The notes beneath the pieces were generated by a model. That model worked only from the letters and a program-made list of their open reading frames with translations. It ran no database searches and had not been told where the DNA came from. Made by a program: the position numbers and the translations under genes. Positions 12,598 to 37,313 of a DNA stretch of 64,000 nt are shown piece after piece. This DNA comes from Fimicolochytrium jonesii (Eukaryota), in NCBI RefSeq assembly GCF_025526975.1, contig NW_026515682.1:310001-374000 (forward strand), in the 5' to 3' direction. Within the stretch, counting starts at the first letter, position 1. Each line of letters starts with the position of its first letter.

Positions 12598-14507
12598 ATG
12601 ACCGGGCTTGCGATAAACGACCTGAGCAGGGCAGAATGGTCGGCATCCCCACTGGCAACGGAAGACGCCAGTCCCATCCCATACTCGAAGGTCATAAACG
12701 ACCCTATCCATGGGCACATCGAGCTTGAAGACTATTGCATGCACGTTATAGATACCCCGCAATTCCAACGGCTGAGAGACTTGAAGCAGCTGGGCAGCGC
12801 TTACTATGTGTTTCCAGGTAAGATTCGGCTTCATTTTGCGACCCACGACAGCATCGCTAACATTGAAATGTGATCTCTTGACTGACAGGTGCAGCGCACA
12901 ACCGTTTCGAGCATTCCATCGGAGTTTGCTATCTTGCAGGCAATCTGGTAGACCACCTTCGGAAAGCTCAGCCGAATTTGGGCATCACCGACAATGACGT
13001 CAAGTGTGTCAAGCTTGCCGGCCTGTGCCATGACCTCGGCCACGGTCCGTTCTCCCACATCTTCGATAACGAATTCATGAAGCAGGCGCGACCGGGGTTC
13101 CAGTGGACTCATGAGGTGGCCAGTCAGGACATGTTGGACTATTTGGTTGCTGAGAATGAGCATGTCAGCCTTACGCCAGGGGAGGTGCGGTTCATTAAGG
13201 ATCTGATTCATGGAGAGCCTCGCGGCGACTACCCACAAGCGGCCAAGCGGTTCCTCTTTGACATTGTTGCCAACAAACGTAACTCGATTGATGTTGATAA
13301 GGTACCGTCTGATTGTGTGATGCCCAAGTTTATACTCGTTACTCAAACAACGCATCCATTGCAGTTCGACTATATCCAAAGAGACTGCCATAACGTCGGC
13401 ATCAAAACCAGCCTGGACGCCACACGCTTCATGAGGCTGGCGCGGGTCATCGACAATCAAATCTGCTTCAACCAAAAAGAGAGCTTTAACATCTACGAGC
13501 TCTTCCACCGCCGTTTCTGCTTGTTCAAAATGGTGTATACCCATCGAGTAGGAAAGGCGGTGGAATACATGCTCTGCGAAGCCTTGTTGGCCGCTGACAA
13601 GTATCTCGGAATATCGTCATCCGTTGACGACATGAGTCGTTATATTCACATGACCGACGCGATCATTCGCGAGATTGAGCGGAGTACTGTGCCTGAACTG
13701 GCCAAATCAAGAGAGATCATTCATCGCCTGCGAATTCGCGAACTCTATCGCTACGTCGATCAGTCCATCGTGCCCCCAGAAGGGTACGAGGGCTACAAAC
13801 GCGAGGTCACGCCGGAAGCCATCGTCCGCTTCCAAGAGCCCGGAGACGACCTCACAGAAGACGACGTTATCATCGAATGGCTGAAACTCGGCTACGCCAT
13901 GCAAGACCAGAACCCGGTAGACGCCGTCAAATTCTACAACAAATGGCAACCCACCCAAAGCTTCCACATTGGCCGCGAACAAATCTCCTCGTTCCTACCC
14001 ACCAATTTCCAGGAAATAACTCTGCGGGTCTTCACTCGCGACAACAATAAACGGCAGCGGGTCCAAGCCGCATTCAGGAAGTTGGTCGACCATCTCAACG
14101 GATCCACCAGCTCTTTCCTCGATTCAGGCAACGAGGACGAGGACGACGGCCTGAGGACCGTGCCCGGTAGCATCGAAGCCGATCGTCAATCAGGCAGTCT
14201 GTCGTTGCAACAAACACCAGGCGACCTCACCGGCCGCCGCCTCTTCACCGACGCCAACGGCGACCCCACAACGCCGTCCGCCAGCCCCACCCCTTCCTCC
14301 ATCCGCAGCGTGTCGCGAACACGGGAACGCGGCTCCACCTCAGCACAGGGCAGCCCGATGCGTCCGCATAGGTTGAGTCCGCCGACGTCGACGATCTTGC
14401 CGAATAATTATCGGGATATTGCGGATAGCCCGGCTACTAAGAAGAGGAAGAGGACGGGGGAGGATAGGAGGCCGGTGGTTGCTCCGAGTGGGGCTGTGGA
14501 GCACTGA
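12598..14507 (+). CDS. SAMHD1-like HD-domain dNTP triphosphohydrolase
   Basis: [11 protein letters not shown]...[16 protein letters not shown]...[31 protein letters not shown] and IDVDK|FDY, with two short introns. Confidence 0.9.
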
Positions 14508-25260: not shown

Positions 25261-28084
<2,824 letters not shown>

Positions 28085-28479
28085 AAGATCATTGAGGACA
28101 CGGCGTAGATTGGTGGGGTGTGGGTATGGGCTGTTGGTTGGATGTTAGGATAGGTGAAAAAAGACGGGCTCTGTGTGGTTACGGCTCTCGTTCCAGTCAT
28201 TTCCGTCGTTGAAATAGAAATCGCCGAATGTTCCGCTCTGACGCTGAATATGTATTTCATGGCAAGGTGTGAATGTGGTTTGAAGGAGTTGACTCAGTGA
28301 CCGCAATGCCAGACCTCAGGAAGAAGAATGGCCTCTCCCCCGTGTAATGCTGAGGAGATTCGCGTTTGCAACCGAACGACCGTCGTAGCTTCCGTGCTCT
28401 GGTCAGCTCCAGGGTCAGCTCTGGTTCATGCATACGGGACAACGGATGTCTCACGTGTCGAGCGTACGCGCAGGTAAGT

Positions 28480-28700
28480 TTATGACATTCGATTTCCCCC
28501 ATTCGGGGAAGAAGGTGAACATCCGCTGAGCTTGTGCGCATGGTACACTACCTCGAGGGCCGGTTTCCAGGAATCTTTGCTTGCGCACAGACGAAGGCGT
28601 TCGCTAAGATTCACAGTGGTGGTTCTTATCATATCTTCCATGGTCTGGATAGCCCGGGTCGCCCTCCGAAGTGAATGGCGTGCTGGGTACCACCCTTCAA
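28480..28700 (-). mobile_element. Degenerate Ty3/Gypsy-type integrase relic
   Basis: RAIQTMEDMIR...SWKPALEVVYH.HKLSGCSP resembles the rve segment ERTIQTLEDMLR...W...LE.AYN..H...G.SP. The match is short and no LTRs were seen. Confidence 0.4.
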
Positions 28701-29873
28701 ATTCCCAGAGGCAAAGTGCTGTCGCTTTGCGAATTCGAGAACATTCGTGCTTTCGAACCCGAAAAAGTAAGCAGAAGCGGGCACTGCCTTGACTCATGCT
28801 CCCGATCCGGCAACATCACCTCCCTACCAGCGATTCGGCCACTCTCGGAAAGGCGGTCCATCAAAAGCCGATATTCCTGCACGGAGGATGCACGTCCAAT
28901 GTCCTAGGCCCTTCTCAAGAAGGGGGTCGTTCACTCGGTTCCGGTTCGGTCGTTGAGAGGATACCAGCGCCTCGAGGCAGCCATCTTTGGCACACGTCGT
29001 TTCGCCTCCGGTTTCGCTCCTTCTCCGGGGTCCTGCATCTCTCTCCGGTCTTCGGGATACAAATGCCCGGTTAACGCAAAGTCGACACACCGCTCTCACT
29101 TGGCGCTTCTGCCTCTCCTTGTTCTATGACGTGATGATTCAAACTTCCTCGGGTGATCTGGTGCTTGGTCGCCGTTGCGTAAACTCCAGCTCGGAGAGCG
29201 CTTGCCGGGGGAGTGAGAAAAGCCGGTGGGTGGCTCGACCCCTTTGACTGTTTTCGATTGAAAGCCCACCCCCAGCTCGAACAGCTACGCCAACAGTGAC
29301 TGTAACAAGCCTCGAAACCCCAAAGATGGTTTTTCAGGAGAGAAAAATGCGTCTTCTCCCCACCCCCGGAGTTTAACAGCGATCCTTACGACTTCAGTGC
29401 CTCCCCACTGACTTGTATCGCTCTGGCTCTCCCTCTCCTTCCTCCCAGAGGGGTGACTGAGTTGCCCGGTGGTCTTGGTTCCGGGGATGATGTTTTGTTT
29501 GAACGCGTCCGCTCCCAACAATGCTCGCAATGTTCACAACGGCAAGAAGCTCACGAACGGCCTGCGAACGGCACAAGGCTGGCACAGAGGCATCGACATC
29601 GTGGTGCTCTCCCTAGGAGCATCGACGTCGAGAGCGACCGGAGGGTTGGATCTGGAGTCTACTCGCAGCGTCCAGTACCTGGTTGTACCCCACCGCTCAA
29701 GACTTCATTTGGGCAACGACGGACCTTCGCTTGGCCCCCTTACATAGACTCGGAGAAAGGGCTGCCATAACGCTCCGTCATATCAGTCAAGGCCTCGCTC
29801 GGGAAGGCAGAGTATCCGATTGTGAGCGCCAACTGAGCGAGCGTCACTTGCCCCGCTCGAGCATCGCGAAACA

Positions 29874-30923
29874 ATGTCCGACCAACTAGAATCCTTCGCG
29901 CAAATCTACGCATACCCACCCTTCTCTACCCGCGCACGCACCGAGAAGCTATGTCGATCCGTCATGTCCGACCCGGAGCTCTATGCTCGCATCGCGCGAT
30001 CCATGCGTGTCATCCTTCCTCGCCAACTACTCGCCCCCGATGAACAAGATGACGAGCAAAGGCGAATCATACGCGATAGCCTTCGGTACCGTATCCCCGT
30101 GTACTTCGGGCGGATATGCTCGCAATCGTTCAACGATGATGTACTTCTGCGTGTATGCGGGTACACTGCCGCGGAAGGCCACACCAAAATCCTTCCAAAA
30201 TGTCGATACGTCGTATGCGGGCGCGTCCTCGCCACCAGTCCCTGTGTAGATACCCCAAAACCCGCCTACGTCGCGCACGCATGGGGCATCAATTTCGAGA
30301 CTTCGGGGACGTGGGATTACAGTCATTATATGGACTCCGAGGGCCGGATTCTGCGCGATACGTTTGAAACGACGCAAAGAGATATGTGCAGGATGATTGT
30401 CCGCGCTGGTGAGCATGCACTGCATGATGCTGGTGCGGGCTACGTGGATCTGTTGGTGCCAATGATTGGCATGGGCGTGTTCATGCAGGCATGTCGGAGT
30501 AGCGACGATCGCAGTTGGGCGTTGAATACGCTGGTGCAGCAGCTCCACTCCGCCGTACACGAATCCACGGCAGAAGTGCGGGTAATATTCTACGGCGACA
30601 CCCGCATCAAACCTCTCCCCACATCCCCCAAATTCACAGTCAAACTCGGTGGGGATATGTTTGCCGACGCCGGCGAGTTGCTAGCGACATCCGCATGCGT
30701 TTGTGTCGTCAACGCATGGGACCCCGTGAGTTTCATCGGCAACGGGATGGCGCATGACCGGAGTATCGACGGAATGATTGGCAGCGGGATGGGTTATGGG
30801 GCGGGGTTTGCCAATTCGTGTTTTACGCATAACACGTACCTTATGCCGGCGGTGTTGGACAGGGAAAACTGGATTGGGATGGAGAGCGAGGCTGCGGGTA
30901 TGGAGAACGACGTGAAAGAATAG
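29874..30923 (+). CDS. Intronless ORF, putative atypical (MavL/DUF4804-like, permuted) macrodomain ADP-ribosylhydrolase
   Basis: 349-aa open frame with YVAHAWG, LLVPMIGMGVF, VKLGGDMF and VVNAWDPVSFIGNG...SIDG motifs. The family call is from motif memory only. Confidence 0.55.
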   Translation: MSDQLESFAQIYAYPPFSTRARTEKLCRSVMSDPELYARIARSMRVILPRQLLAPDEQDDEQRRIIRDSLRYRIPVYFGRICSQSFNDDVLLRVCGYTAAEGHTKILPKCRYVVCGRVLATSPCVDTPKPAYVAHAWGINFETSGTWDYSHYMDSEGRILRDTFETTQRDMCRMIVRAGEHALHDAGAGYVDLLVPMIGMGVFMQACRSSDDRSWALNTLVQQLHSAVHESTAEVRVIFYGDTRIKPLPTSPKFTVKLGGDMFADAGELLATSACVCVVNAWDPVSFIGNGMAHDRSIDGMIGSGMGYGAGFANSCFTHNTYLMPAVLDRENWIGMESEAAGMENDVKE

Positions 30924-30926
30924 CAG

Positions 30927-31958
30927 GTGCTTATTCGAGTTGGACAGAACGCATACCTCGCACCCGCCGACCATTCACACCTACCCGCTCACTGGCGCGT
31001 CGGTGGCGTGTCCGGCTGCATCGTCAAATCCCCGGATCCCTACACCTGGACCCTGCGCGACTCGCATTACCTCCTAGACCAACAAGGCCACGCATGGGAC
31101 GTTTATTCAACTGACAGACAACACATCGACTACGTCGTATCATGGCATCGATTCAACGGCGGCGCAAATCAACGGTTCGAAATTGAACAGGGCGGCGTGA
31201 CCCATCGGGGTCTTTATGCCTATATCGACGCCGAAAACACTCTCAGGCTCACACCAACCGCATCCCAATCCGTCGCTCTGCGATTCCTCCCCGCTCCTAC
31301 AGGGCCCACGCCGGCATTCTGGACACAGCTTCCAGCACAGCTGCCATACCCGTTATTCTATCTCTCTGAGCAGCAAGCGCCCGTCCTTGCGAATCACCCC
31401 GATCTGGAAGCATACACCCCTTACCTCCCCTGCTGGGTCCCACAGGCGCTGATCAGCACCGCCCTCTTCGGGTCCGCCGAAACAGTCGCCCAGACACAGA
31501 GGGCTAGGGGGACGGCCTGGGTGTGGGCCACCGAATTCAGTAACGTGCATTCCACCTTCGAATTTACCGAACCGCCCATCACGGTGGACGGCGAAACATA
31601 CCCCGGCGGCCCTGAAGTGTATTTCCAATTGATGAAGTACCACGGCACCCCGGCGTTCGATCTCGCGCGGCAGGCACTTACACCCGACGCTAACGGGTAT
31701 GTCAACCCGTCTGACGCGTTTGCGGTCGGGCTGAGGTGGGCGTTGCGGGATGATTGGACGGACGTACGGGAGGGTGTGATGGAGAAGGCGGTTCGGGCGA
31801 AGTTTGAACGGGAGGAATTGAGGGAGTTGTTGAAATCGACGGGGACGCATCCGCTCGTGCAACTGAAACCGGGCGATGGGTATTGGGGGACGGGTGGGGA
31901 TGGACGTGGGGGGAATGTGCTTGGGGTTATTTTGGAGAGGGTAAGAGGGACGTTGTAG
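30927..31958 (+). CDS. Ricin-B-like segment + NADAR (YbiA) domain, in frame with the upstream ORF
   Basis: FSN...ITVDGETY...EVYFQLMK...LRDDWTDVREGVMEKAVRAKF...LRELLKSTG..PLV...DGYWGTG.DGRG.N.LG.ILERVR is a clear NADAR signature. WDV...VSWHRFNGGANQRF resembles a ricin QxW repeat. Confidence 0.8.
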   Translation: MLIRVGQNAYLAPADHSHLPAHWRVGGVSGCIVKSPDPYTWTLRDSHYLLDQQGHAWDVYSTDRQHIDYVVSWHRFNGGANQRFEIEQGGVTHRGLYAYIDAENTLRLTPTASQSVALRFLPAPTGPTPAFWTQLPAQLPYPLFYLSEQQAPVLANHPDLEAYTPYLPCWVPQALISTALFGSAETVAQTQRARGTAWVWATEFSNVHSTFEFTEPPITVDGETYPGGPEVYFQLMKYHGTPAFDLARQALTPDANGYVNPSDAFAVGLRWALRDDWTDVREGVMEKAVRAKFEREELRELLKSTGTHPLVQLKPGDGYWGTGGDGRGGNVLGVILERVRGTL

Positions 31959-32457
31959 TTTGTTGGATAGGGACATTTTGGGGACGGTTGGTGGTGAGAC
32001 TTTCTATTGCGTGAGTGGATCGTTTCTTTAGGGGTTGGTCAACATCTTCATCCTACTTTGGATCGACCAGGGGTGGACATAGAGATTGTTTGTATTTATA
32101 TACACATAGACAGGATGTATATCAGCATTCGGCCCCTTTGTTTGTGTTGTTCTTGGATTTGCAGAGTGGCAAAGTTGGGAAATAGAGGCTCGACATAGAG
32201 GAAGGGACGACTGTGGGCGTCGGTGTCATGCGCATATGGATATGTACTGTACAGCATGTATAGTATGCACAGAGCTATAACCAGGGGCGGGCGTCCCGTC
32301 GGATGTAGGATGTGCAGGCGGACAGACCGTCTCTCATAGATGTTGCTTCTCAGCGAGGGGCGTCATATGCATGGAGGGGTGGAAAGTCCAATACGCCTGT
32401 GATATCGTAACTACATATAATCATCGTATCTATGTAAACCTGCCCCAATTCTACAAT

Positions 32458-33771
32458 CTACACCCCCAAACTCTCCAATGTCAATTTTAGAGCCTCCTCC
32501 ACGCTGACCCGCGGCTTCCACCCCACCTCCTCCCTCAATCTCCGCACATCCAACGTCAAGCTCTTCCCCATCACACACGCCACATATCGCGACAACGTCG
32601 GTTCCCCAGCTATCCCAAAACCTTCCCAAATGATCTCGGAGAGGTACCCGAGGAAATAAGCCGCCCAGAATGGTAGCGGAATCGGTGTGGGGTGTGCGGA
32701 CAGGTGCGTCGCGAGGTGTGCAAGCAGGCTGTGCATTTGTAATGGGCTGTCGTTGGAGATGTTGTATGTGTGGCCTAAACTCCACCCATAAGATATCCCA
32801 AAAAAAGAAAAAAGGACCAGCGAGAAACACAGACTCCACAGAACATACCATTTACGACATGATCCCCAACGGTGGCAACACACGCCATTGCGTCGATTAC
32901 GTTACCGACATAGGTTACGTCCATCCACCCCTTTCCGTTGTTGATGACTGGGATACGGCCGCTTTGGATGCGGGAGACGAGGCGGGGGAGCCAGGTTGTG
33001 TCGTTGGGGCCGGTTATGCCGCGGGGGCGGAGAATTACTGCTGCTTTTAGGTGCGGGTGCCCGGGGGTGGGTTGCAGGGCGGCGTGGATTATGTGTTCTG
33101 CCATCTGATAAATATATCGAGCTAGTTGATGAGTTTATTCTGTGCCAACCTCCTCGCAGTTGGAACATACCAACTTGGATTTAGCGTAATAATTGATCTG
33201 CTGACTCAACGAGACCACATCCTCTTCCTTGATACTTAACTGGTCGCGGGGGCAGGTGTAGATGCTCGGAGTGGAGACGTGCACGAGTAAGGGTACGGCG
33301 TGGGTGATGCAGGCGGAGACGATGTGTTGGGTTGCGGTTATGTTGGCTGAGACAAAGTCCTTCCATCTAGGGGATTTCAGGAGAGCGTGAGAAGTATGAA
33401 GCAAGGGTTCCAACTCCGGTGCTTGCCGCAATGCCCTCCACTCATCACACCTACCTGCCAGCCAATTCACACTTTGCAGCACAGTGAAACACCACCTCAA
33501 CCCCCTCCATCACCTCCCCAAGCACTTCCTCAACCTCTCCCGCCTCCCCACCTAAATTAACCCCCACAAAAACCGCTCCCATCTCCCTCAATTTCCTCCC
33601 CTTCACTTCATTCCTGCCTATTGCGATGACTTGAAGGTCGGTGGGTGGGATGTGGCGGGCGGGCGGGGAGGGAAGTTGGGAGGGGAAGGGGTGTGTGAGA
33701 CCCTGTGTGAGGAGAGTGGAGGTGAGGTGCTGCCCGAGGAAGCCTGTTGCGCCTGTCACTAGAACTTTCAT
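32458..33771 (-). CDS. Extended SDR (3-beta-HSD / NAD-dependent epimerase-like, OleD-like), multi-exon
   Basis: MKVLVTGATGFLGQHL, VFHCAAK, LVHVSTPSIY, catalytic YAKSK, ILRPRGITGPND and MDVTYVGNV. Confidence 0.88.
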
Positions 33772-34334: not shown

Positions 34335-35501
34335 TTACGCGTCGACGACGTTGTCCTCCTCATCGACGATGTCCTCCTCATCGTAGATGTTGTCCTCCTC
34401 ATCGTAGTTGTCTTCCTCATCGACGGTGTTGTTTTGGTCACGTTTCCAGCTGATGTTGCGGGGTTCACGCTTCTCGACAACATTGCTGCTCTCATCGCGG
34501 GCCCAGTTGATGTTGCGAGGATCACGTTTCCAGTTGATGTTGCGGGGCTCACGCTTCTCGACAACATTGCTGCTCTCATCGCGGGCCCAGATGGGGAGGT
34601 TGCGAGGATCACGTTTCCAGTTGATGTTGCGGGGCTCACGCTTCTCGATATTGCTGCTCTCATCGCGTGCCCAGTTGATGTTGCGGGGCTCACGCTTCTC
34701 GATATTGCTGCTCTCATCGCGCCAGTTGATGTTGCGGGGCTCACGCTTCTCGATGTTGCTGCTCTCATCGCGCCAGTTGATGTTGCGCGGCTCACGCTTC
34801 TCGATGTTGCTGCTCTCATCGCGCCAGTTGATGTTGCGGGGCTCACGCTTCTCGATGTTGCTGCTCTCATCGCGCCAGTTGATGTTGCGCGGCTCACGCT
34901 TCTCGATATTGCTGCTCTCATCGCGCCAGTTGATGTTGCGGGGCTCACGCTTCTCGATGTTGCTGCTCTCATCGCGCCAGTTGATGTTGCGCGGCTCACG
35001 CTTCTCGATGTTGCTGCTCTCATCGCGCCAGTTGATGTTGCGGGGCTCACGCTTCTCGATGTTGCTGCTCTCATCGCGCCAGTTGATGTTGCGCGGCTCA
35101 CGCTTCTCGATATTGCTGCTCTCATCGCGCCAGTTGATGTTGCGCGGCTCACGCTTCTCGGTGTTGCTGCTCTCATCGCGCCAGTTGATGTTGCGGGGTT
35201 CACGTTTCTCGATGTTGCTGCTCTCATCGCGCCAGTTGATGTTGCGGGGCTCACGCTTCTCGATATTGCTGCTCTCATCGCGCCAGTTGATGTTGCGCGG
35301 CTCACGCTTCTCGATATTGCTGCTCTCATCGCGCCAGTTGATGTTGCGGGGCTCACGTTTCCAATTCCCAATGTTGCGAGGTTCACGGGCCTCCACGTCG
35401 CGCTTAACTTTGATGATTGGCTCGCGGGTCTCGACTTGAACGCTGGCCAACGCGCTGGTGACGGAGAGGGCGAGGAGGAGGATGGTGCTGGTGAGCTTCA
35501 T
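34335..35501 (-). CDS. Secreted Kex2-processed repeat protein (KEP): multicopy peptide precursor
   Basis: Signal peptide MKLTSTILLLALSVTSALA; 13 units of EPRNINWRDESSN(I/T)EKR plus 7 variant units; acidic C-terminal tail; single exon. Confidence 0.92.
   Translation of the reverse strand: MKLTSTILLLALSVTSALASVQVETREPIIKVKRDVEAREPRNIGNWKREPRNINWRDESSNIEKREPRNINWRDESSNIEKREPRNINWRDESSNIEKREPRNINWRDESSNTEKREPRNINWRDESSNIEKREPRNINWRDESSNIEKREPRNINWRDESSNIEKREPRNINWRDESSNIEKREPRNINWRDESSNIEKREPRNINWRDESSNIEKREPRNINWRDESSNIEKREPRNINWRDESSNIEKREPRNINWRDESSNIEKREPRNINWARDESSNIEKREPRNINWKRDPRNLPIWARDESSNVVEKREPRNINWKRDPRNINWARDESSNVVEKREPRNISWKRDQNNTVDEEDNYDEEDNIYDEEDIVDEEDNVVDA
34440..35390 (-). repeat. 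Coding 51-bp tandem repeat array within the KEP gene
   Basis: Plus-strand unit gttgcg(g/c)ggctcacgcttctcgat(a/g)ttgctgctctcatcgcgccagttgat; differences between units are almost all synonymous. Confidence 0.95.
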
Positions 35502-37313
35502 GGCTGCGTTGTTTGGTTGAGAGGAAGATGTGATGTTGTTGGGAGTGCTGTTGAGATGGAGGAGAGGAGGGATGTCGGATCGATGCGCTGGCTTTTATGC
35601 ACTTTTCGGTGAAGTTGCTTGCTATCTCACGGGTCGTGGGGCTTTTCACGCGTCGGGAAAGAAGGGAAAGGTCTGCTCTTGTGTTGCAGGCCAGAGCGCT
35701 AGCTGCCGTATCCCGAATCAGGGTTGCCGCCAGGGTTTGCGATCCAGGAATAGGTCCAACACAACCTCAACCGCAACCTAGCTGTTTTCGGAATCATACC
35801 CGGATGCAGACACAAATAATCCTGTTGGACATACTCCCAGAATAGCAGTTGTTCTTAGCTCGACAAAAACTTTATATTGTGTCCTATTGTGATGCTCCAA
35901 ATGAGAACCGTCGGAAATGTTCGCTCCAGACTCCTGGGGTGTTTGTCTTCACAAAACGGCTCCCAGCGGAGTCCCATTTTGACAGCGCGTCGTGATTCAA
36001 ATATTAACAGTCTCGAAACAGCCGTCACCCGGCTATTGAGGAAATTTGTGGGCGCTTCTGCGAAACCGTCAGGCGGAAAAGACCTTAACAAGCCATGGCA
36101 ATCAAGTGAATGCCCGAAAATCTGCGCTTGCTTCACATCGGAAATCCCTGTGTTATCATGATTTATGTCCACTTCGTCGTAGCAGAGACCCAAAGCTTGG
36201 AGAAGAAAAAAACTTAAGCCTAACGCGCGCCCTTATCCTTCTTCGATTCCATTGACCATTCGCTGGAAGGATTGAACAGCACGGAGCGAATTCCTCTCGA
36301 GGGACGTTCGTTCCTTTGTCGTCGACGGTGACAATGGGTAGGCGTGACGATCGTCAAGTTGACCTGACATCCCCACGCATACATGGGTGGAGTGGGATAG
36401 GAAAGCGTGGGATATGAGTCCTCCTATTGAACATGAAGCGGAAGAAAAAAACTGGTGCTAAGCGTTCGTGGCGCAGATAGCTCAGCGGGGCAGTTATGGG
36501 AGAAGCAAAAAGCCACACCACACTTCGGCGAAAGCGGAGATTGGCGGGGATCATTCGCGTGAAAAGGGAACGCGTGCGAGAAATGACAAAGTGTTGAGAG
36601 GACGGTGTTCTCATGTTGTCTTTTACTATGGATTGCGCCTGTCAAAGAATCGGCGCTCGAGAAGTGCGAAAACGCCTTCCAGTATGGGCGAGCGGCATGG
36701 CTTTCGTTTCTCCATCAAGTTCTGTACAACGTGCCGCAAGATAGAATATTGTTCTTGGAAGGCATACGCCGCATATCACATGCACAATGGACATGCCTTG
36801 ATGGGACGATCGAATCGAGCGTATCGCTAAATTGACCGCTCCCACCAGCGGCACCTTTGTAGCCCGAGAAGCTTTCCTCAAGTATTATGGGAGGGGTTTG
36901 CCAATGGGCATACGGCTCACATAGGGCAGGTTGGTGGAAGCTTTGACGCACCCATGGACCTACCACTTCTACCACCGCGATGGGATAGCAGATAACCTGC
37001 GGTGGTTGACGGGAGCCCATGTCGTCCACTTTCGTATGGCCCAATTTCCACGAAAGCAAGACGCGACGCGTGCACACCCCCTGCCCATTCCTTCTTTTTT
37101 CCCAACCTTCCAAACCATGCCGCACGGACTTGATAATGTGTATTGTACGCGGACGGAAGCGGCCCCAAGACACCTGTATCGAGTATGGGATGGCAATTGA
37201 TGGATGGGGAGGTGATTGATTTGGAAATAGGGCAGAACAAAAAGGCCGAGACGTGAGGCCATCGCTTCGGTGGCTGTTTGAATATCGTCGTTCCTTTTTC
37301 ATAGCAGGCGGAG

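Follow-up and report, generated by a model that had tools for sequence, protein, structure and literature searches.

A candidate three-domain ADP-ribose-eraser gene with an in-frame stop codon in its first linker in the chytrid Fimicolochytrium jonesii

The described proteins closest to the locus treated here belong to two unrelated ADP-ribose-processing folds: the MavL/Larg1/DUF4804 class of macrodomains, for which the residue numbering of MavL, as well as the motif definitions of the PARG and MacroD macrodomains, is taken from PMC10951314, and the NADAR domains, whose known families carry Glu, Asp or His at the catalytic position of the last strand (PMC11543638, PMC11125620). Members of the former class are not confined to bacteria, DUF4804 having already been noted in fungi (PMC10951314) and a DUF4804 protein being packaged in the Medusavirus virion (PMC6450098). 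The subject of the present analysis is a gene of F. jonesii (Spizellomycetales) found in a window of 64,000 nucleotides (the whole stretch analysed; contig NW_026515682.1), in which a macrodomain of this class, a beta-trefoil and a NADAR domain are encoded one after the other in the same frame, a TAG codon interrupting the linker between the first two. We lean towards reading the locus as a gene without introns, likely of horizontal origin, that encodes a predicted three-domain ADP-ribose eraser, the stop codon in the linker probably making the macrodomain its main product.

The locus and its macrodomain

Past the TAG the frame continues, contiguous and in register, for 344 stop-free codons encoding the trefoil and the NADAR domain; from the local composition, a stop-free stretch of this length has a chance of about 1e-5. 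The first in-frame ATG beyond the stop is codon 237 of this downstream frame, inside the NADAR domain, the preceding 236 codons containing none. Neither ORF1 (the first open reading frame) nor the downstream part requires an intron; the first-pass annotation, made from the letters alone, had described a 2.1-kb intronless frame, which holds as to introns but not as to the frame, broken as it is by the TAG. In NCBI and UniRef the locus is represented by a protein of 693 aa (P0024). The features are as follows.

29874 to 31958, plus strand: whole locus, from the ATG to the final TAG (31956-31958)
29874..30923, plus strand: ORF1, 349 aa, a MavL/Larg1/DUF4804-class macrodomain (folded part about residues 1-335), then a short linker and the TAG
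30459..30482, plus strand: diphosphate-binding loop PMIGMGVF, aligned to MavL P220-F227
30705..30773, plus strand: catalytic loop, residues 278-300, D283 corresponding to MavL D315 and N290 to N322
30912..30947, plus strand: 36-nt intron of the database model P0024, with a non-consensus donor, removing the conserved first trefoil strand; probably an artefact
30921..30923, plus strand: in-frame TAG in the first interdomain linker, context GAA TAG CAG GTG, as in the sequence of the assembly
30924..31295, plus strand: predicted beta-trefoil (ricin-B/fascin-like fold), residues 1-124 of the downstream frame, from the predicted structure
31311..31529, plus strand: N-terminal extension conserved in the Gln-type NADAR subfamily, residues about 130-202, from the alignment of relatives
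31530..31958, plus strand: NADAR core (YbiA fold), with E231, K238, R275, W278, D318 and W321 kept, ending in TAG
31860..31862, plus strand: Q313, at the site of the catalytic Glu of YbiA and of the Phytophthora NADAR (E125)

The AlphaFold model of ORF1 (predicted local distance difference test, pLDDT, 94.7; predicted template modelling score, pTM, 0.93) folds as a macrodomain of the MavL/Larg1/DUF4804 class: in a structural comparison among 48,161 chains the best Z scores were those of CG3568 (25.4), Larg1 (24.9) and MavL (18.8), the next being PARG at 6.4, while Foldseek retrieved Larg1, MavL, CG3568 and CG2909 (E 4.7e-10) and returned 26 matches at E<=0.001, all among the matches listed belonging to this class. 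MavL-containing clusters were also ranked first (0.96) in a search of the ESM Atlas. Single-sequence searches of ORF1 in Pfam, PDB, PHROGs, NCBIfam and PADLOC gave no match, and a library of 50% clusters yielded 226 relatives at E<=0.001; a profile from 107 sequences, namely ORF1, nine close relatives and the matches of 250-500 aa among the best 150 of the 226, matches MavL at E 2.7e-8 and Larg1 at 0.0025. ORF1 itself has no match to Pfam PF24754 or PF16062, which at E<=0.01 are found in five and one of the 107 homologues, respectively, the matches shown with scores lying below the gathering cut-offs; the PARG and MacroD motifs, GGGx6-8QEE or Nx6GG[VLI], are absent from ORF1. The atypical macrodomain proposed in the first-pass annotation, which had named a non-macrodomain fold as the outcome that would speak against it, is thus borne out by the model, by both structural searches and by the profile.

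All the sequence elements on which that proposal was founded are present, namely HAWG (135-138), PMIGMGVF (196-203), GDMF, VVNAWD (278-283) and SIDG (297-300), but their order, which had been called permuted, is that of MavL and not peculiar to ORF1, the diphosphate loop preceding the catalytic loop in both proteins. By alignment, the equivalents of MavL F227, D315 and N322 are kept; S297 and D299 are matched to T331 and D333 from motif spacing, the alignment having ended at N322, and the position of MavL D323 is occupied by G291. Conservation within the 107 homologues is nearly complete at D283 (104), N290 (106), G291 (102), D295 (104), S/T297 (105), D/E299 (105) and the aromatic residue 203 (104). 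With respect to the class motif 1, [VIL]xGxGxGx[FWY], the ORF1 stretch V-P-M-I-G-M-G-V-F keeps the second and third Gly and the aromatic residue, the first Gly being replaced by Met (it is Gly in only 12/107 homologues); the class motif 2, WDxx[SA]xPGN[DE][FY][FWY], is kept at WD, S and GN, with Pro replaced by Ile, and its acidic [DE] is Gly in 102/107 homologues. Since ORF1 belongs to the class by its fold and departs from the published motif 2, it is filed as a distinct, new subfamily within the MavL/Larg1/DUF4804 class.

The beta-trefoil and the Gln-type NADAR domain

In the predicted structure of the downstream frame (pLDDT 90.8), residues 2-123 form a 12-strand beta-trefoil that is about as similar to R-type lectins as to fascin (Z 13-14.5), so that sugar binding is only a possibility. 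The middle part of the locus had been called ricin-like: the fold and the motif W74..NGG.NQ.F85 agree with this, but the trefoil region gave no match to Pfam Ricin_B at E<=1. A single sugar-site-like stretch can be recognized (D59, W74, N82, Q83), in which the Asp is Glu in 4/7 and the Asn is Lys in 4/7 aligned sequences. Judged from its fold only, the trefoil would likely tether the protein to a glycan or to another protein.

The C-terminal domain is a NADAR, as had been recognized from the letters: it scores 66.2 bits against PF08719 (cut-off 35.1), shows the YbiA fold in the predicted structure and matches YbiA and the Phytophthora NADAR. The first catalytic Glu and Lys (E43 and K50 in 8BAU) are kept as E231 and K238; together with W278 and W321 they are invariant among the 12 nearest database relatives, as are the clade-specific residues E204, H209 and K315, and the N-terminal extension of about 75 residues is common to all of these. 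The catalytic position of the last strand is Gln in 11 of these 12 relatives, which were found by similarity. E167Q abolishes the activity of the SCO5665 NADAR (PMC12945103) and D171N impairs that of E. coli C7 (PMC11543638); a Gln at this position therefore makes guanine de-ADP-ribosylation, and rescue from DarT1, doubtful. Of the two de-ADP-ribosylating folds seen in the first-pass annotation, then, the macrodomain does fall in a class with arginine erasers, but for the NADAR domain removal of ADP-ribose from guanine is doubtful.

Gln-type NADAR domains are found in other contexts as well. In Polyangiales (L007:3205-4365, L009:4455-5615 and P0012) the domain is fused behind what appears by eye to be an alpha/beta hydrolase-like domain, while other myxobacteria and a planctomycete have it as a stand-alone protein. 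A 914-codon frame (P0175; L017:5931-8675, plus strand), on a metagenome contig dense in genes and poor in introns, carries a Gln-type NADAR at its C-terminus, and its N-terminal part shows by eye R..STS..ExE-like motifs, as in arginine ADP-ribosyltransferases, for which Pfam, PDB, PHROGs and NCBIfam gave no confirmation; if real, these motifs would be a second tie between the Gln-type NADAR and arginine ADP-ribosylation. In an 860-codon frame (P0176; L014:5012-7591, plus strand), which adjoins a RING/TRAF gene on a contig of 62% GC (guanine plus cytosine), the NADAR comes first and is followed by a long region without assignment.

Origin of the fusion and the stop codon in the linker

Among 172 proteins compared, all three domains stand in one open reading frame, besides P0024, in P0025, P0171, P0026, P0027 and P0028, that is, in four 90% clusters (P0025/P0171, P0026, P0027, P0028) from ENA, JGI and Logan metagenomes; P0004 and P0029 combine macrodomain and trefoil. 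The search for long proteins spanned 1534-4380 aa, lengths of 611-1533 aa being covered only via the 50%-cluster library. In the macrodomain tree (FastTree, midpoint root, 146 sequences, 16/162 having been dropped for covering fewer than 220 profile positions), F. jonesii groups with Phlyctochytrium arcticum (0.97), with P0025/P0171 as sister (0.98) and then P0026/P0027 (0.99). In the NADAR tree, whose printed supports of 99 and 70 may be shifted by re-rooting, the domain of the window goes with P0025/P0171, P0007, P0008 and P0027, then with P0026/P0028, the myxobacterial stand-alone copies lying apart. Since both trees group the chytrid copy with the fusions, the three domains have travelled together and, judging from these trees, the three-domain fusion is the ancestral state and the stand-alone state in chytrids a derived one. 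The coupling of two folds, proposed from this locus, is therefore to be seen as a conserved fusion in other organisms, but here the TAG splits the macrodomain from the rest.

The same macrodomain subfamily enters other combinations: P0173 and P0174 are polyproteins of 2.9-3.2 thousand residues in which a Glu-type NADAR lies close to the N-terminus and the macrodomain in mid-protein, a second, independent fusion as far as the tree, where they fall outside the chytrid clade, can tell. In P0070, P0094, P0141 and P0065 the macrodomain is fused to EEP phosphatase/nuclease, cytidylyltransferase-like and protein-kinase domains.

Horizontal acquisition, which the first-pass annotation had allowed for, is supported: the gene was probably acquired in this way, because it is intron-free, the chytrid copies are nested among unlabelled metagenome proteins, and relatives occur in giant viruses. 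Indeed, the three significant matches of the ORF1 structure in a viral library are proteins of Mimiviridae ChoanoV1 and Sylvanvirus, and the macrodomain subfamily was found at four loci in giant-virus bins and IMG/VR contigs; the bins G001 and G003 have separate NADAR-like genes (one of three matches being above the cut-off), a third record, a 14-kb fragment, has no NADAR-like gene, and viral contigs yielded no Gln-type NADAR. A giant-virus capsid gene has been reported on a fungal contig of F. jonesii (PMC13533422). As a narrow test, ORF1 was compared by tblastn with phages and plasmids, without a match, and an equally narrow scan of GTDB genomes with one macrodomain motif pattern found nothing. 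As to the donor, our judgement inclines towards a giant virus, with a protist as the lesser candidate and a bacterium as an improbable one.

Several points weigh against the reading adopted here. The labelled viral sequences L001 and L002 fall outside the macrodomain clade containing the chytrids, and the three-domain proteins nearest to the chytrid copy carry no taxonomic label; an unsampled protist donor is possible, a giant-virus source plausible. GC and GC3 (GC at third codon positions) of the locus agree with those of the host exons, so that there is no compositional sign of recent transfer. As to activity, MavL loses activity on the change D323A (PMC10951314), and the Gly at the corresponding position could mean that the macrodomain is a binder or takes another substrate. 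Conversely, the NADAR clade might have regained an active site through its invariant E204, H209 and K315; moreover, the overall count of Gln at the catalytic position, 28/29 sequences with fusions and loci added and none with Glu, includes 11 rows (nine loci, P0175 and P0176) that come from pattern scans, the metagenome pattern having required Gln.

Within the first linker the TAG precedes the first trefoil strand by two codons, and only 7/222 of the single-base routes to a stop fall in this linker (3.2%; 5.5% of those after the macrodomain). The identity to P0025 of the macrodomain, trefoil and NADAR (55/37/55%) is within or above the ranges among intact homologues (44-53, 34-53 and 44-57%, respectively), hence the downstream part has not decayed; because its frame is still intact, either the stop arose recently or it is to some extent circumvented. 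Its position in the linker would fit selection for a clean macrodomain or for a switch. A recent or fixed truncation comes first among the explanations, at not quite an even chance, while separate translation of the downstream part from a non-AUG start is very improbable. Reassignment of TAG was rejected, since TAG ends the neighbouring AAA gene. In Phlyctochytrium arcticum the orthologue is annotated as a stand-alone macrodomain with the same end boundary, an end that may itself be mis-annotated, and no P. arcticum partner for the downstream domains was present among the 12 NADAR database matches.

Partial readthrough, by which the TAG would act as a functional switch between a short macrodomain-only and a long three-domain isoform, is an unlikely explanation that the linker position (reached by so few routes) and the intact downstream frame, with no extra divergence, nevertheless favour. 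Base +4 is C, and the context TAG CAG G partly matches the yeast CAR-N-YA readthrough context. However, no stable RNA structure or stem-loop was found past the stop (z 0.24), the same TAG is an ordinary stop in the AAA gene, we found no report of chytrid readthrough in the literature, and a surviving stop would also land in the linker under selection for a cleanly truncated macrodomain. Splicing, as in the NCBI/UniRef model P0024, where the short intron removes the stop and gives one 693-aa protein, has a similarly low standing: TAGCAG is like tandem acceptors and a branch-like CTTAT lies within the 36 nt, but the donor GTGAAA differs from those of neighbouring introns (GTAAGC, GTGAGT, GTACGT), which are also longer (about 58-75 nt by eye), and the first trefoil strand that it deletes is conserved in homologues. 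None of the 17 frame-preserving GT/GC-AG pairs across the stop combines a consensus donor with sparing of the conserved residues; the second intron of the model (31941-32031 of the window) replaces the end of the last NADAR helix, with loss of the invariant R341, and is probably an artefact too. Finally, the TAG may be an assembly error in an intact 694-codon fusion, for which one base change would suffice, the rest being intact; this is improbable, for about 3% of random errors would be expected in this linker, and the P. arcticum annotation ends at the same boundary.

The surroundings of the locus are ordinary, with an AAA ATPase gene upstream and an epimerase/3-beta-HSD gene downstream, both intron-bearing; no ADP-ribosyltransferase gene was seen beside it, and a transposon setting was rejected, no convincing terminal or direct repeats being found in 28000-33000. 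The genome of F. jonesii has been reported as rich in 6mA (N6-methyladenine; PMC11258239), and the dinucleotide ApT is in excess in ORF1 (78 against 64 expected, z 3.2), which would fit 5' 6mA clusters; little weight is given to this, eight host exons ranging from z -2.2 to 3.3. Elsewhere in the window, the minus strand at 34335-35594 encodes a predicted secreted precursor, with a signal peptide by eye and more than 14 tandem 17-residue units separated by KR sites, which resembles Kex2-processed repeat proteins and has no Pfam match. A long exon at 12882-14507 (plus strand) has an HD-domain match, presumably akin to the SAMHD1-type dNTP triphosphohydrolases.

Proposed function and known systems

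In the three-domain eraser that we favour, the macrodomain is the predicted catalytic part, with the MavL diphosphate loop and most distal-ribose residues kept; it would cleave ADP-ribose from a side chain of a target protein, arginine being the likeliest, by a substrate-assisted mechanism as proposed for the MavL class, and the near-invariant D295 may substitute for the missing D323. The NADAR domain, which keeps the ADP-ribose-binding residues, would likely bind ADP-ribosylated targets or act on a linkage other than ADP-ribosyl-guanine. The long low-complexity linkers suggest that the domains are independent, and no signal peptide is seen by eye at the start of ORF1, so that an intracellular product is expected. 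In its ancestral form the fusion was most likely employed in an ADP-ribosylation conflict between virus and host or between microbes, and in F. jonesii the stop codon in the first linker likely leaves the macrodomain as the main product.

It is rather improbable that both domains are active with canonical specificities, on arginine-linked ADP-ribose in proteins and guanine-linked ADP-ribose in DNA or RNA, in defence of the fungus against toxins. All the other NADAR active-site residues are indeed kept, every NADAR tested in PMC12945103 removed ADP-ribose from guanine, and bacterially derived ladybird NADARs, cited there, act in defence; against this stand the Gln in place of the catalytic Glu, the very exchange that inactivated SCO5665, the failure of active YbiA-type NADARs to rescue non-cognate toxins (PMC11125620), and the stop codon that parts the domains. 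An equally low probability is given to an action on small molecules instead of conjugates (ADP-ribose-derived signals and, for NADAR, riboflavin-pathway intermediates), a role proposed in PMC9503650 for the tandem Macro/NADAR proteins of DNA viruses and in keeping with the macrodomain relatives fused to EEP phosphatase and nucleotidyltransferase domains. The riboflavin-intermediate N-glycosidase family TIGR02464 does match the NADAR weakly, but at 58.9 bits it stays below its cut-off of 73.7; no riboflavin family was matched among the scanned neighbours of NADAR loci, and all four class members reported as tested in PMC10951314 act on arginine conjugates. Slightly less probable still is a reader-eraser derived from a giant virus and domesticated in chytrids, in which the Gln-type NADAR would read, the Gly-type macrodomain would erase it from a linkage different from those tested to date and a leaky stop would give both forms; if true, the fungus could make, from one boundary stop, either a free eraser or a trefoil-tethered three-domain form.

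On the reading of a split three-domain eraser, the locus would be a clear example of a multidomain gene of foreign origin that was divided after entering a fungus. Two apparently undescribed enzyme subfamilies, both open to assay, are defined: a Gly-type group of MavL-related macrodomains (226 clusters at 50% identity, with members in giant viruses) without one MavL catalytic Asp, and a group of NADAR domains carrying Gln where the known families have their defining residue.

NADAR annotations occur in other fungal genomes, and the chytrid domain is thus not the first fungal occurrence. The first-pass annotation, to which no described fungal system of this architecture was known, agrees with our searches as to the three-domain arrangement, but Macro and NADAR tandems are known in viruses (PMC9503650). 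In the open-access literature searched we found no description of the three-domain protein, of a Gly-type macrodomain or of a Gln-type NADAR; the supplements of PMC9503650 and PMC11125620 might hold such. The viral tandems likewise join two unrelated ADP-ribose-processing folds in one polypeptide, whereas the MavL/DUF4804 class, a trefoil spacer, a Gln-type NADAR and a fungal copy are not named in the available text of PMC9503650. With the YbiA family (YbiA, 2B3W; Phytophthora NADAR, 8BAU; SCO5665) the chytrid NADAR shares the fold, 38-39% identity to YbiA over about 140 residues and the equivalents of E43, K50, D86, W89, D130 and W133; it differs in the Gln, followed by an invariant Lys, in place of the last-strand Glu, Asp or His, in the N-terminal extension and in that neither a DarT nor a riboflavin partner was seen. 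The toxin-antitoxin pairs DarT1-NADAR and YarT-YbiA have in common with it a NADAR-fold eraser whose catalytic Asp or Glu is absent in the chytrid domain; in particular, the DarT1-associated antitoxin (BC4488) has an Asp in the last strand and linkage to darT, where the chytrid locus has Gln and flanks of AAA ATPase and epimerase/3-beta-HSD genes. MavL, Larg1 (Lpg0081) and CG2909/CG3568 (DUF4804; PF24754, PF16062), finally, have the same fold as ORF1 over about 270-306 residues and the same order of loops, GxGxF and then WDxxSxxGN, at 11-15% identity and below the Pfam cut-offs; ORF1 departs from them in its motif 2, WDxxSFIGNG, with Gly for D323 and Ile for Pro, in the near-invariant H135, N140, E142, D148 and D295 of its subfamily, and in the trefoil and NADAR domains fused to it in its relatives.

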